The translations under genes were made by a program, and so were the position numbers. Below, one piece after another: positions 16,106 to 57,524 of a stretch of DNA of 64,000 nucleotides (positions within the stretch are counted from its first letter, which is position 1; every line of letters starts with the position of its first letter). A model generated the notes under the pieces. The model ran no database searches. It was not told the DNA's origin and was given only the letters and a program-made list of their open reading frames with translations. The stretch is taken from the IMG/VR virus record IMGVR_UViG_3300025849_003344. One strand, written 5' to 3'. This DNA comes from a virus (lineage: Duplodnaviria > Caudoviricetes).

Positions 16106-17098
16106 ATGCACAGATTTTTACTGATAGCCGCTTTTCTTGCGGCCGGGCCAGTCTATGGTCAAGTGGCTAATGATGCTGATGGTAATTATGATTCTACAAG
16201 TTATGTGAACACAGATAGCAATACGACTACTACGACCGATAGCACAGTAAATAGCACCAATACTAATAACAACACATCTGCTATTACGAGCACAAATACT
16301 AATACAAATAACAATAATAACACCTCGAATTCAACTTCGACTAATACTAATACTAACGCAAATACCAACACTAACACTAACACTAATACCAATAATACGA
16401 CAGTAAATTCTACTGGAAACAACACCAATACAAACACTAATACAAATACTAATACAAGTAATAACACAAATAATAACACAAATAATTCTACCGTAAACTC
16501 AACAAGTAATAACACAAACAATTCAACTGTAAATAGTACGTCCACCGTTGACCAGACGGTAAATTCAACTGCTACTAACACTAACACCAATACTAACACT
16601 AATAGTAACACAAATAATACCACAGTAAATTCTACTGGAAATAACACAAACACAAATCAGAACACATCCGATATTACTCAAACATTAAAGACTCCACCTC
16701 CATCGGCCATTGCGCCGACTGTTATGCTAGGCGGAAATGATACATGTACTGTTTCTTATTCAGCTGCAGTTCAAACTCAGATCTTAGGTGCTTCTGGTGG
16801 TGGTACAGTTCGTGACTTAAATTGTGAACGTCTTAAAAATGCCAAAACACTTTATAACATGGGCATGAAGGTAGCATCGGTTGCTTTGATGTGTCAAGAA
16901 AAATCAATATTTGAAGCTATGGAAATGGCCGGAACTCCATGTCCGTTCAAAGGTACTATTGGAACTGAAGCTCAAGCGTTGTGGGATAATGATCCTGCTC
17001 GGAAACCTGTGGCCCAAAGAGGAAATCAAGATAATGATGCAGTCAAGAAGATTCTTGCTGGTGTGTTATTTGTTGCTTTGTTGTCACTCGGCCTATAG
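16106..17098 (+). CDS. Exported Asn/Thr-rich protein with Cys-containing domain and C-terminal anchor
   Basis: Signal peptide, about 150 aa of TN repeats, PPPSAIAP...C...CERLK...MCQ...PCP, hydrophobic tail. Confidence 0.8.
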   Translation: MHRFLLIAAFLAAGPVYGQVANDADGNYDSTSYVNTDSNTTTTTDSTVNSTNTNNNTSAITSTNTNTNNNNNTSNSTSTNTNTNANTNTNTNTNTNNTTVNSTGNNTNTNTNTNTNTSNNTNNNTNNSTVNSTSNNTNNSTVNSTSTVDQTVNSTATNTNTNTNTNSNTNNTTVNSTGNNTNTNQNTSDITQTLKTPPPSAIAPTVMLGGNDTCTVSYSAAVQTQILGASGGGTVRDLNCERLKNAKTLYNMGMKVASVALMCQEKSIFEAMEMAGTPCPFKGTIGTEAQALWDNDPARKPVAQRGNQDNDAVKKILAGVLFVALLSLGL

Positions 17099-31972: not shown

Positions 31973-32539
31973 TTAAGCGGCAATAATATTAAACCATTGT
32001 GGAATAGAACGCTTTGACCATACCATATTAAAACGATCTTGTTTAGTCTGATAGTATTCTTTATAAGATCGAACAGGATCACCCTCATACATACATTGTG
32101 GTTCATGTTGCATAGCAAGAGGAAAGTCTGTATATAGGTTAGACCATTTAATACCGCTAGGTGGTTTACTTAGCATATCACGTAGCTTAGTCTCTGTGGC
32201 ATGGATTTTACCATAACGATGTGTGTATTCTTCGCACAGCGCCACAAAATGTTTATAATGCCATTCGTAATTAGCATTTGTCTGCATAGTCCATACAGTA
32301 CACGGGTGACCATGATGTACTGCTTTATATAGTAATTCTTCGTGTGAATGCTTTGGATGGACCCAGTAATTAGACATACGTTTGCCTGATTTCGATGGGC
32401 GTTTTTCCACGTAGCCGTCAAGCATACGGTGTGCAGTAGATAGCATTTGTGCTGACTCTACAATCATTTTTACAACATGTTTGTCACATTGTAGTTGTGC
32501 CGCTTTTACTGGGCAAGTATCTAGTATAAAGATATTCAT
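31973..32539 (-). CDS. denV: Pyrimidine dimer DNA glycosylase / endonuclease V family
   Basis: MNIFIL...CDKHVVKMIVESAQMLSTAHR...HPCTVW...EYTHRYGKIH. Confidence 0.85.
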   Translation of the reverse strand: MNIFILDTCPVKAAQLQCDKHVVKMIVESAQMLSTAHRMLDGYVEKRPSKSGKRMSNYWVHPKHSHEELLYKAVHHGHPCTVWTMQTNANYEWHYKHFVALCEEYTHRYGKIHATETKLRDMLSKPPSGIKWSNLYTDFPLAMQHEPQCMYEGDPVRSYKEYYQTKQDRFNMVWSKRSIPQWFNIIAA

Positions 32540-33261: not shown

Positions 33262-33678
33262 TTATACTTTTACTTTTACGTGTTTTGAATGTATTTTACA
33301 TCCTATGAACTCGTTATAGTAATCATCACTAAGTAATACATCATATTGAAACTGTAGCTTTGCTTCATAGTATGAGCATTCACCTTTACTTATGCATAAT
33401 CTTAGTATCTCTTTATGGTAGTTGTCTATACCCTTTTGCTCAATGAGCTTCTGTACGGCCACGCTGGAGCCCGTGTATGTGTACCAGTCAGACATAACGC
33501 GAGTCTTTACCCGCCTCTTCCTTGTCTTAGTAACGGGTAAGATTTTCGGTTTCCAGAAGAATTTCTTACCGATGTATTTTTTACCGGTATCTAACTCGGT
33601 AATGCAATAGACAAAGCCCTGATAATCCTTAAGATCATCAGGGCCAAGCTCAAAGTTTTTGTTTTCATATAACCACAT
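33262..33678 (-). CDS. GIY-YIG-like endonuclease
   Basis: GFVYCITELDTGKKYIGKK...YTGSS...YYEAK. Confidence 0.8.
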   Translation of the reverse strand: MWLYENKNFELGPDDLKDYQGFVYCITELDTGKKYIGKKFFWKPKILPVTKTRKRRVKTRVMSDWYTYTGSSVAVQKLIEQKGIDNYHKEILRLCISKGECSYYEAKLQFQYDVLLSDDYYNEFIGCKIHSKHVKVKV

Positions 33679-46940: not shown

Positions 46941-47183
46941 CTATCTCTCATAAATGTACGCATCGACTCTGTCGGCATACTTGAGAGGTAATGACTGGTT
47001 GTACCGGCGAACGCCGCGGCGATGACCACGTGCTTGAAGTTTGAGATAGTACCGTTGGTACTTACCGTCCTCTTTCAGCATTCTGTTACACTTAGATACG
47101 AAGGATCTAAGATCAGCAATTTGAGGATCTTGACAATCACTAAAAGTTGCTATATACGAATCAGATGTCCGGGTCGTGTACAT
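46941..47183 (-). CDS. Hypothetical early protein
   Basis: 80 aa, coupled to upstream ORF. Confidence 0.6.
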   Translation of the reverse strand: MYTTRTSDSYIATFSDCQDPQIADLRSFVSKCNRMLKEDGKYQRYYLKLQARGHRRGVRRYNQSLPLKYADRVDAYIYER

Positions 47184-47401
47184 TATAATACCTCCGCTTG
47201 GAGGTTACGCTCTTCACGATCAATGTTTTTTATGAGATCTTCGATAATCATATCGAGTTCAACTTGAATGTCTGACTTAGACATGTTAAACGTATTCGAG
47301 CGGCGAAGTACGCTTGCAAGCTTATTCTTCATTACAAGTGCATCGTGTAGGTCTCTTACTATAATCATACTATTCTCCTTATCATGTAACCATACTACCA
47401 T
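47183..47401 (-). CDS. Hypothetical early protein
   Basis: Early promoter 47392-47420; true start probably the MIIVRD downstream of the SD. Confidence 0.55.
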   Translation of the reverse strand: MVVWLHDKENSMIIVRDLHDALVMKNKLASVLRRSNTFNMSKSDIQVELDMIIEDLIKNIDREERNLQAEVL

Positions 47402-47439
47402 ACTTTTAACGAGATGTACATAAAAAAATGCGGTTAAAG

Positions 47440-47467
47440 CCGCATTAATTTAGAGTGTATCATTTAT
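47440..47467. repeat. Direct repeat R copy 1 (ccgcattaatttagagtgtatcatttat)
   Basis: Identical 28 bp at 47440, 47761 and 48890. Confidence 0.95.
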
Positions 47468-47468
47468 A

Positions 47469-47684
47469 TTACAATAATTCGTTTGGATTGTTTTTGTAAG
47501 TTTTAATAAGTTGTGAAAGTGTTAGATTGAAAAAGATAGTGGTTTGAGGGTTATGAGGAGGGAAGATTAGAAAATCGGTAGTAGATGGAAGTTTAAGTGA
47601 TTTGATATATTTAATGATTTCGGGAATAGTGTTGAAAGATAGTGGTTGATTGTAGTTAGATGGGTTAATAAGTGTATAAGTCAT
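47469..47684 (-). CDS. Small protein encoded by an almost G-free coding strand
   Basis: 71 aa; SD AGGAG and early promoter 47713-47741; 5 G in 216 nt. Confidence 0.65.
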   Translation of the reverse strand: MTYTLINPSNYNQPLSFNTIPEIIKYIKSLKLPSTTDFLIFPPHNPQTTIFFNLTLSQLIKTYKNNPNELL

Positions 47685-47760
47685 GTATTTCTCCTTTTTG
47701 ACTGATATAACCTTTCTACCACATGTTAAATCGTTTGTACATAAATTAATGCGGCGTTAA

Positions 47761-47794
47761 CCGCATTAATTTAGAGTGTATCATTTATGTTACT
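47761..47794. repeat. Direct repeat R copy 2, one arm of a 13-bp stem-loop adjoining an early promoter
   Basis: taaattaatgcgg-cgttaa-ccgcattaattta; 34 bp shared with copy 3. Confidence 0.95.
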
Positions 47795-48833
47795 TTACGA
47801 CGGAAGTTTCCTCTAATACTATTTCGTCACCGTCTTTATACGTATCAGACATTCGTTGTAAGGCATTATCGGTTATACCGAGTGTTTGACAAGCACCAAC
47901 AGTGTTGCATGGATATCCTATTTTATCGAACCTTTGCATCTTTAAATTATTAACAAAGTTTATACGATCTTGAGACTTCCAGATTTCTAACACAGTGCTC
48001 TCTTTAAGGTTACCAAGAACCTTGTCGTTATTATCATCTAAGCAACAAACATAGTAATCTCCGTTTGGAGCAATAAACATTTCCTCTTCAACTCGCTTGA
48101 TTAAGGGGCACTTCAAATCAGCATCGATTGCAAACTCACCAGTCTTAAATCGTTCTCTCTCTGCCCACAACCCAGGTTTGCTATGTCTAAATGTAAACAA
48201 TTCGTCATACAAATCTTGGCCCAAATAATCTAATACAGATTGTTGTGTTAGTTCAAAGGAACTAAAAGGAACAGATTCGCCGGGTGGGTGTTGGATAGGG
48301 TTCTTATTAAAAGCGTTAAACACAGCTAGTGAATATTCAAATGCTGGCATAACATTAATGCCAAAAAACATTTCAACGCCAAGTTCTTTTTTGATCTCTA
48401 AGAACTCTTTTACATTCTTCATTACAGAAGAGAAGCTAATCCCTTTTACCGATCTATATGCTCTATCGTTGTGCCCATCTACGTTGACTTGAATAGAGGT
48501 CAGTAGATTCTCTTCAAGTAATACACGCGACATTCTCTTAGACATTAAGCCAAAGTTGCTCAACATATCAATTTCTGTGTTGGGCAAATTCTTTTTAATA
48601 TAACGGAGAATGTCTACATAACTTTTATGATAAAGACCCTCACCATTCTCACTCATATGAATATTTTTAATCTCATATGGAAAATCAGGATGTGAGACCT
48701 CATCTATAATTTTATAGACAAGTTCAGCATCCATATCAAACGCAAGTTTAGTGCCCCGTGAAGTAGGGCACCAAACACATTTTGCATTACATCTATTAGA
48801 TAGCGCAAAGTTTAAGTTACGTAGTGGTTTCAA
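47790..48833 (-). CDS. Radical SAM/SPASM protein, paralog of 6119-7150
   Basis: TTG start; CNAKCVWC; IAPNGDYYVCC; 53/69 identities over the N-terminus by manual alignment. Confidence 0.9.
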   Translation of the reverse strand: MKPLRNLNFALSNRCNAKCVWCPTSRGTKLAFDMDAELVYKIIDEVSHPDFPYEIKNIHMSENGEGLYHKSYVDILRYIKKNLPNTEIDMLSNFGLMSKRMSRVLLEENLLTSIQVNVDGHNDRAYRSVKGISFSSVMKNVKEFLEIKKELGVEMFFGINVMPAFEYSLAVFNAFNKNPIQHPPGESVPFSSFELTQQSVLDYLGQDLYDELFTFRHSKPGLWAERERFKTGEFAIDADLKCPLIKRVEEEMFIAPNGDYYVCCLDDNNDKVLGNLKESTVLEIWKSQDRINFVNNLKMQRFDKIGYPCNTVGACQTLGITDNALQRMSDTYKDGDEIVLEETSVVK

Positions 48834-48853: not shown

Positions 48854-48923
48854 TTTAGGCAGCAGTGGCATACGCCACTGCTGCCTCTGCCGCATTAATT
48901 TAGAGTGTATCATTTATGTTACT
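48854..48923. repeat. Copy of the DUF932 gene 3' end fused to direct repeat R copy 3
   Basis: 48854-48894 matches 49935-49975 at 37/41; R at 48890-48923. Confidence 0.9.
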
Positions 48924-57174: not shown

Positions 57175-57430
57175 TAAAACGCCACACTTCTGTTACTAGG
57201 CAGTGGCCGCCCTCTTAATTATGCAGCTAGTGCGTAATCAGATGGTGCAAAATTATTGTTTGCATTTGTAGTGATTGACCTATTTCGCAGTCAGCCGGTA
57301 AACTCCACGTCACTTTCACACCTGTCGATCCTATTTCAGCCCCATCAAAAATACACATTATGTACTTATGGTGGAGCTGCCGGGTACCGCCCCCGGGTCC
57401 AGTATGTGTCTACGTTGCTTCAACGTTTAC
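57175..57430 (-). ncRNA. ssrA: Circularly permuted two-piece tmRNA
   Basis: Acceptor piece ...GACCCGGGGGCGGTACCCGGCAGCTCCACCA (ends 57369), 25-nt spacer, coding piece GGGGCTGAAATAGGATCGAC from 57343, tag ANNNFAPSDYALAA* (57263-57219); outer ends approximate. Confidence 0.92.
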
Positions 57431-57524
57431 AAGATTATTTATGACGTATTTGGCGTAATCCCTGACTATACGTGGGCTGTGTGATATAATTATCACTCGT
57501 CCGTCTTCGCCATAAGCTGTGTAT

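Follow-up and report, generated by a model that had tools for sequence, protein, structure and literature searches.

What could lead a phage to write one of its protein-coding genes almost without guanine? The question is raised by a 64,000-nt stretch of DNA (hereafter, the window) from the Caudoviricetes virus record IMGVR_UViG_3300025849_003344, in which an open reading frame (ORF) on the minus strand (47469..47684) encodes a small alpha/beta protein of 71 amino acids without a recognizable family. The coding strand of this G-purged ORF contains 81 A, 70 T, 60 C, and 5 G in 216 nt (2.3% G). An earlier reading made from the letters of the window alone (hereafter, the sequence-only reading) had counted five G, located in ATG, two GAA, GAT, and TTG, and the strand count agrees exactly (ATG, codon 1; GAA, codon 22; GAT, codon 37; GAA, codon 69; TTG, codon 71). 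The same reading had described a protein without Gly, Ala, Val, Arg, Cys, and Trp, which is borne out by the translation, where Met occurs only at the start, and had described nearby genes as far richer in G. These average 21.2% G (100 putative window genes; mean fraction 0.212, standard deviation [sd] 0.034), placing the ORF (0.023) 5.6 sd below the mean, with the second-lowest gene at 0.124. Viewed from the plus strand, C content in 216-nt stretches of the window reaches its low point here (minimum: 4 C vs. a mean of 44 with an sd of 7.8).

The depletion is two-layered, involving both codon choice and amino-acid choice. Given the protein, G is used in one of the 40 codons that offer a choice, compared to 9.1 expected from window codon usage (P = 2.8e-4), and AAG, CAG, and NNG codons are nearly missing. 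At the residue level, 3/70 positions hold a G-requiring amino acid vs. 43% in window proteins (P = 3e-13), and every other 70-residue stretch in the window has at least 14. Surviving G fall into two classes: those dictated by residues whose codons all contain G (Met1, one to four Asp/Glu, and rarely Val or an internal Met), and one or two at terminal or drifting third positions. Because G avoidance is selected on the nucleic acid, as argued below, the protein is confined to an alphabet of 11–13 residue types (F, L, I, S, P, T, Y, H, Q, N, K, and a few acidic residues). C is elevated in the ORF, synonymous sites included: the ratio NNC/(NNC+NNT) is 0.38–0.55 in alleles of the gene vs. 0.28 for the window, and the window allele has the highest ratio of all window genes. 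The second most G-poor stretch of the window (16226..16637) has a trivial compositional cause, since it encodes low-complexity (Asn-Thr)n sequence within a secreted protein; the 330-amino acid product (16106-17098, plus strand) has a signal-like N-terminus, an (Asn-Thr)n region of ~170 residues, and a C-terminal hydrophobic tail.

Homologs were collected using a word-indexed protein search, which returned five clusters (97–69% identity) with DNA from ENA, JGI, and Logan assemblies of marine samples, and IMG/VR added 13 loci, for a total of 16 distinct DNA alleles. An assembly artefact is ruled out, since numerous independent assemblies contain the gene with its G-poor composition. The ratio of non-synonymous to synonymous substitution rates (dN/dS) and the codon-position counts come from the first codon alignment (six sequences), and substitutions were mapped by parsimony on a maximum-likelihood tree of the 15 full-length alleles. 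In the six-sequence alignment, the reading frame and length (70–71 codons) are preserved in every sequence, variable columns number 29/17/50 at codon positions 1/2/3, and pairwise dN/dS is about 0.09–0.35, with dS ranging from 0.14 to 1.1–1.5. An AlphaFold2 model built from only six sequences has a beta-beta-alpha-beta-beta-alpha fold (predicted local distance difference test [pLDDT]: 85.4; predicted template modelling score [pTM]: 0.74). Short contigs from the region occur in four metatranscriptome runs. One marine contig of 306 nt spans 47361..47666, which is weak evidence in that it attests to presence in an RNA library and not to strand, ends, or level; the others lie only over the 72-amino acid gene downstream or the radical SAM gene upstream of the ORF, and a lack of coverage elsewhere carries no information. 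Translation is favoured by the codon-position pattern, the dN/dS values, and the confident predicted fold, and ORF 47469..47684 is a genuine translated gene under protein-level purifying selection. A non-coding RNA or DNA element is ruled out by the first two of these. The sequence-only reading had left room for an ORF that is not translated; the coding signatures, together with the RNA-library contig over most of the gene, point the other way.

The alleles were compared to see what happens to G when the gene diverges. All 16 hold 2–5 G each, including those down to 66–69% protein identity, and in a truncated copy (42 residues matched to the profile), the 126 nt include 5 G, which occur exclusively in ATG, GAA, or GAT codons. 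Homologs of normal G content, which would have spoken against the selection on the nucleic acid suggested by the sequence-only reading, are not among them; the low count is kept while the protein and its synonymous sites diverge. Only 9 of 161 mapped changes created a G (six at first positions, none at second positions, and 3/90 at third positions), and replacements between homologs remain inside the G-free codon set (e.g., P/H/Q, S/T, K/N/T/S). Six A>G changes were counted vs. 42 A>T and 27 A>C, and C<->T transitions were common (61). Third-position changes involved G in 5/90 cases. As a control, three ordinary neighbouring genes were compared between the window and L009, a lineage with a 97%-identical copy, and here G was involved in 76 of the 213 synonymous third-position differences (36%), 58 of which were A<->G (binomial probability of ≤5/90 at the control rate: P = 1.4e-11).

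Because so few third-position changes involve G even though synonymous sites are close to saturation between alleles (dS up to 1.5), G avoidance is actively maintained by selection on the nucleic acid, separate from the protein-level purifying selection. This selection strips sense-strand G at synonymous and non-synonymous sites alike. Our own estimate of scaled selection, derived from third-position G of ~2% vs. 17%, is ~2.3 per site; this is comparable to the range of strong codon-usage selection, such that a weak per-site benefit in a very large population would suffice. Deaminase-type hypermutation (G>A) was considered and rejected, given that the lost G were mostly replaced by C (60 C vs. 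~40 expected) and that the state is held against A>G transitions.

These data bear directly on the view that there is no selection on G as such, which we regard as highly improbable. Under this view, the depletion is a by-product of an odd protein composition combined with codon bias, or of local mutation bias, or the ORF encodes the precursor peptide of a radical SAM/SPASM enzyme, or there is no gene. The protein is indeed rich in N, T, I, L, P, S, and F, the codons of which can be G-free, but G is avoided at synonymous sites independently of the protein. Mutation bias is difficult to reconcile with the purging of A>G when C<->T is common in the same gene and A<->G is common in its neighbours, and a local bias would not halt at the ATG and the stop codon in six genomic contexts. 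The precursor idea draws on the window gene upstream, which encodes a radical SAM/SPASM enzyme resembling peptide maturases, and on aromatic-X-Asn/Lys triplets in the ORF; against it, the radical SAM gene is not beside any other allele and the product is predicted to be a folded domain. The absence of a gene is contradicted by the clear coding signatures. The by-product, precursor, and non-gene readings are thus largely excluded by the allele comparisons.

The boundaries of the depletion follow those of the gene. In all six contexts examined, it sets in at the ATG and ends at or shortly past the stop codon, and the flanks contain 3–9 G per 30 nt. A scan of relatives for G-depleted ORFs, as proposed in the sequence-only reading, returned only the G-purged gene itself: no other ORF of at least 40 codons with <8% of any base was found in the nine related loci scanned. 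When both strands were searched for G-free runs of at least 80 nt, the G-purged gene was the only hit in a 152-kb relative (83% complete) and in three other related records. No such run was found in phages T4, Melnitz, phiM12, and P-HM1, and the very AT-rich pelagiphage HTVC008M has one AT-rich run of 83 nt. Full-text literature searches on guanine-free, G-less, or G-depleted phage genes found nothing comparable. Base-level purifying selection on this single translated phage gene is statistically unambiguous, and we found no described precedent for it.

Several features of the opposite strand were also considered as the possible object of the purge. No plus-strand ORF of at least 30 amino acids lies inside the gene, and promoters on that strand are limited to generic 9/12 sigma-70-like matches, no more numerous than in shuffled sequences. 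A G-quadruplex or R-loop on the G-rich plus strand was rejected (only four short, widely spaced G runs), as were CsrA-type GGA motifs on the antisense strand (a by-eye count is about as composition predicts) and a UV-hardened template (the template strand is T-rich, and TT dimers are not avoided).

Why is G removed? We rank the candidate readings in the following order: a structure-free message, a self-immune message, a template free of hydroxymethylcytosine (hmC), a Rho-related function, GTP shortage, and the by-product explanation discussed above. The sequence-only reading had listed GTP starvation or the stringent response, a G-specific RNase, a C-targeting enzyme on the template, and a sensor or anti-defence role, which we treat as hypotheses; the loss of RNA structure, also typical of a Rho-loading site, is an addition to that list. 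The leading reading, which we favour only tentatively, is that the purged property amounts to a structure-free, highly translatable message. The predicted minimum free energy (MFE) of the ORF RNA is -1.9 kcal/mol, compared to -47.5 +/- 9.0 kcal/mol (least stable: -26.7) for 100 other sense-strand 216-mers, and in the predicted folding of the whole transcript, structure is found only at the terminator hairpin. The ORF RNA is predicted to be essentially unstructured because without G there are no G-C or G-U pairs, and only A-U pairs are left. Under this reading, the removal of G would abolish G-C and G-U pairing and leave the ORF RNA essentially unfolded; the message would also be devoid of Shine-Dalgarno (SD)-like sites and of G-dependent pause or cleavage sites, and the preference for C-ending codons would add to its translatability. 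Ribosomes could then load on and traverse the message exceptionally well, and a small host-takeover protein might be made at once from the first transcripts. We propose that such a design is affordable only for a very small, composition-tolerant protein, which is why the genome would contain only one gene of this kind.

Both the use of C-ending codons and the moderate strength of selection at each site resemble translational selection. In E. coli, ORF-wide mRNA structure sets translation efficiency (Burkhardt et al. 2017, PMC5318159), and, as in that system, the unstructured unit is the ORF from start to stop. The E. coli effect is graded and involves all four bases (PMC5318159), whereas the G-purged gene is an extreme case in which one base is deleted.

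Several points weigh against a structure-free message as the selected property. Nothing explains why this ORFan needs extreme translatability when the capsid or other abundant proteins do not. Effects of mRNA structure on initiation concentrate near the start codon, and a purge along the whole ORF exceeds what the model needs. A and U are unskewed in the ORF, although a skew would cut pairing further, and, apart from those of the SD, one or two G remain in the 5' untranslated region (UTR). The same composition fits equally well with models that assign a cost to each G and with a Rho-loading site. Moreover, the term 'takeover protein' is a guess from position and size for a protein without a recognizable family or fold relative.

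A cost per G is the core of the second reading, in which the mRNA escapes a G-requiring attack on RNA, of host or phage origin, and the small protein is the antidote or a factor needed in that state. Candidates for the attacker would be a G-cleaving endoribonuclease, a G-preferring ribosome-dependent mRNA interferase, or a base-modifying toxin. We consider this unlikely, even though it offers the best gene-specific logic for the presence of a single such gene in the genome. In line with a cost per G, the base is avoided as such at all codon positions and contexts and kept mainly for Asp, Glu, and Met. The SD (GGAG), start codon, and terminator hairpin retain G; cleavage within the SD would be enough to inactivate the message. 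To our knowledge, neither marine Alphaproteobacteria nor other likely hosts have a described G-specific anti-phage RNase or RNA modifier. The cassette is not accompanied by a nuclease or toxin gene, its neighbours differ in every lineage, and the protein has no PADLOC or Pfam match. Base-specific attack does exist in T4-like phage–host conflicts: DarT1 targets phage DNA by ADP-ribosylating its guanine, with AdfN of T-even phages as the countermeasure (PMC11257639). Pierisin-type ADP-ribosyltransferases modify G and C in DNA and RNA (PMC12945103), and sequence-specific toxin RNases have been reviewed (PMC5408214).

Avoidance of enzyme targets has parallels at the level of motifs. The avoidance of restriction sites occurs in phage genomes and, similar to ACA-less mRNAs that survive MazF (for toxin specificities, see PMC5408214), involves the removal of a feature at synonymous sites to escape a sequence-directed enzyme, as may be the case here. 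Unlike in MazF-type or restriction avoidance, a whole base is gone rather than a motif of 3–6 nt, and the protein alphabet has been reshaped. We know of no cognate enzyme for G avoidance at the level of the base.

A third reading concerns the DNA and brings in the identity of the phage. The window encodes T4-type genes (a UvsX-like recombinase, a gp41-type helicase, class I ribonucleotide reductase [RNR], ThyX, PhoH, and DenV-like and SegE-like proteins), and we assign it to a marine T4-like phage on this gene content; distant tblastn matches were only to T4-like cyanophages, Melnitz, and phiM12. In the related locus L005, a T4 gp42-type dCMP hydroxymethylase (match to PDB 1b49, E = 4e-64) is encoded a few genes downstream of the G-purged gene and keeps the specificity Asp in the NDYAW motif. 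Homologs occur in two further records, one of which is the 152-kb relative. No hydroxymethylase was seen in the fragmentary relatives G003 and G004, which are uninformative at 22–44% completeness. Because the testable carriers encode a dCMP hydroxymethylase, their DNA most probably contains hmC or a further modified form. As an observation on these loci, the hydroxymethylase gene (L005 4900-5899; G002:C1:132774-133454) lies beside genes for a dATP/dGTP-pyrophosphohydrolase-like protein, ThyX, dCMP deaminase, and a MazG-like enzyme.

If the DNA is modified in this way, the selected object might be a template strand nearly without cytosine (5 instead of ~45 [hm]C), the transcription of which would be independent of modification state and insensitive to lesions at modified C (glycosylase, deaminase, ADP-ribosylation) and to C-sensing termination of the T4 Alc type. 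We judge this to be quite improbable. It is slightly favoured by the hydroxymethylase of the testable carriers and fits with the strict asymmetry between 60 C on the sense strand and 5 C on the template. The duplex, however, retains 65 (hm)C, so agents that act on double-stranded DNA are not avoided, and T4, the model hmC phage, is without a G-free stretch of at least 80 nt. Host polymerase reads T4 hmC templates normally, and template C is not purged from the UTR and terminator.

The elevated C content raises the additional possibility, to which we assign a low probability, that the C-rich, G-poor, unstructured ORF RNA is a Rho utilization (rut) region that ties transcription of the cassette or of downstream genes to translation of the ORF, or that soaks up Rho. 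With a C/G ratio of 12 over 216 nt, an MFE of -1.9 kcal/mol, and C raised at synonymous sites as well, the composition is that of a textbook rut site, and the ORF resembles lambda tR1 rutA/rutB and the rut features described in PMC6144790 (C-rich, G-poor, unstructured RNA of >80 nt). Several homologs have no hairpin after the ORF, and in L001 the next gene begins 29 nt downstream, where polarity could matter. Unlike in rut, the G-purged tract is a translated, protein-constrained ORF that ribosomes would normally hide, leaving the RNA inaccessible except perhaps where translation fails. There is no excess of YC dinucleotides (35 vs. 35.7 +/- 3.3 from composition). The ORF is directly followed by an intrinsic terminator and then a new promoter in the window as well as in its closest relatives, such that Rho would act without downstream effect, and the downstream arrangement is not conserved.

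Avoidance of each G is also what would be expected of a natural G-less cassette, transcribable at low GTP (stringent response or a guanine-nucleotide drain), in which GTP is needed at ~15 positions of the unit. In relatives, genes near the G-purged gene encode MazG-like pyrophosphohydrolases, a dATP/dGTP-pyrophosphohydrolase-like protein, a SpoT-type HD_4 protein, and a PTPS (QueD-like) enzyme, such that these phages do touch guanine-nucleotide and alarmone pools. None of these enzymes is a constant neighbour, though, and none was found in the window. Translation is itself GTP-dependent, so the protein product would gain little, and the UTR retains GGAG and other G. We know of no GTP-depleting defence and consider this reading very unlikely.

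At a more general level than any of these causes, the gene may be an insulated expression channel, i.e., a three-letter (A, C, U) message readable where G-containing messages or hmC templates are blocked, with a protein that acts on that state; this is a possible view, held with considerable doubt. A variant reading has the gene arising de novo out of a G-free RNA element. If true, the insulated channel would represent a new principle by which phages counter defences or take over the host, in which target avoidance works at the level of the base and not of the motif. If a G content of ~2% is selectable in a working gene, single-base composition would be a trait of the individual message, beyond the genome-wide mutational background. 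The gene also suggests that about 11 kinds of amino acid suffice to write a protein with a predicted fold. In abundant marine bacteria, it provides a clean natural experiment on the limits of early phage expression (ORF-wide RNA structure, G-directed attack, Rho, and nucleotide supply). Mononucleotide-purged ORFs provide a simple search criterion for genes built for expression under duress, and the design may serve robust expression in synthetic biology.

The surroundings of the ORF are those of a compact expression unit. The SD mentioned in the sequence-only reading (AAGGAG; 47690..47696, minus strand) lies 7 nt 5' of the ATG, and GGAG or GGA is kept in all homologs. The early promoter named there corresponds to a site at 47713..47741 (minus strand; -35 TGTACA, 14 nt, extended -10 TGgTAGAAA); the site is present, but as a consensus match only, and we therefore refer to it as promoter-like. 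The motif TGTACA-N14-TGnTA precedes six window gene starts (the G-purged gene and at least five others) and is also found upstream of homologs. An intrinsic-terminator-like hairpin (47427..47446, minus strand; 7-bp stem with 4 GC, followed by T7) lies 22 nt past the stop codon, and the next promoter-like site (TGTACA-N14-TGGTAGTAT; 47392..47420, minus strand) would serve the downstream 72-amino acid ORF (47183..47401). On the other side, a stem-loop (AATGCGG-TTAACG-CCGCATT; 47748..47767, minus strand) ends the upstream radical SAM cassette and is the terminator part of a promoter-early stem-loop (PeSL)-type unit. An exact 26-nt repeat has one copy after the stop codon of the G-purged ORF (47442..47467, plus strand) and further copies at 47763..47788 and 48892..48917, each just past the stop of a different gene. 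Together with the hairpins, the copies beginning at 47442, 47763, and 48892 uphold the earlier description of the gene as having its own repeat-bounded cassette.

This cassette is mobile. The G-purged gene occurs in at least five different neighbourhoods among related phages, a stem-loop accompanies some copies, and the hairpin 3' of the ORF is missing in several homologs. The window has a radical SAM cassette that the 97%-identical L009 lineage lacks at this place. In L015 (a TARA scaffold of 633 nt; positions 223-444), a diverged copy is truncated after codon 42; the break falls precisely on a stem-loop/promoter unit, to which the copy is fused in frame, and this looks like a snapshot of a PeSL-mediated deletion. 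On these comparisons, the G-purged gene is an early gene whose self-contained cassette of promoter, SD, and (in some copies) terminator travels among the hyperplastic regions of marine T4-like phages. PeSL cassettes have been described in T4-type phages (Arbiol et al. 2010, PMC2839356; Comeau et al. 2014, PMC4122927). The likeness lies in a small ORFan placed between repeated composites of stem-loop terminator and early-type promoter in a T4-like hyperplastic region, in the differing neighbourhoods of the gene, and in the copy cut exactly at the stem-loop. Unlike the G-purged gene, PeSLs concern gene shuffling and expression rather than composition, and the PeSL abstracts (PMC2839356, PMC4122927) describe no base-purged cargo.

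The radical SAM/SPASM enzyme directly upstream (347 amino acids; 47790-48833, minus strand) has its own PeSL-type cassette and resembles peptide or cofactor maturases. The 152-kb relative has only a 26%-identical radical SAM gene, 35 kb from the G-purged gene. A ribosomally synthesized and post-translationally modified peptide (RiPP) precursor was rejected as an identity of the 71-amino acid protein, since adjacency is not conserved and a maturase-like gene lies beside the G-purged gene only in the window. Two small ORFans of normal composition follow the G-purged gene (47183-47401, 72 amino acids; 46941-47183, 80 amino acids; both minus strand), and the 72-amino acid gene is covered by RNA-library contigs from three runs (two studies).

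Searches of Pfam, PHROGs, NCBIfam, and PADLOC gave no match for the 71-amino acid protein or for these two downstream neighbours, and Rfam had no match in the region of the G-purged gene. No match was found in GenBank phages by megablast of the region or by tblastn of the protein, in searches from which close records may have been missing. A profile search of 1.84 billion representatives returned only the protein's own family, the truncated copy, and two giant low-complexity N/T-rich proteins that we regard as compositional hits. Scores in a feature search of the ESM Atlas were 0.84 or lower and thus uninformative. The best fold matches (ERH, GYF, and ligase subdomains) are weak and mutually unrelated (Foldseek E = 0.16 in PDB and 0.025 in BFVD; VIA Z = 4.4; Atlas template modelling score = 0.59), and no function is assigned from them. 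From its size and early-cassette position, a role in host takeover or counter-defence may be guessed.

Elsewhere in the window, a SegE-like GIY-YIG homing endonuclease adjoins the RNR genes, with a DenV-like pyrimidine-dimer glycosylase nearby (the two at 33262-33678 and 31973-32539, minus strand). The window also encodes a permuted two-piece transfer-messenger RNA (tmRNA) of the alphaproteobacterial type (57178-57475, minus strand; tag ANNNFAPSDYALAA; Rfam RF04321, 126 bits; RF01849, 106 bits). The tmRNA of pelagimyophage-like phages and Melnitz has been discussed (PMC9004378), and phage-borne permuted tmRNA is probably already known. The tmRNA type hints at an alphaproteobacterial (SAR11-like) host lineage.

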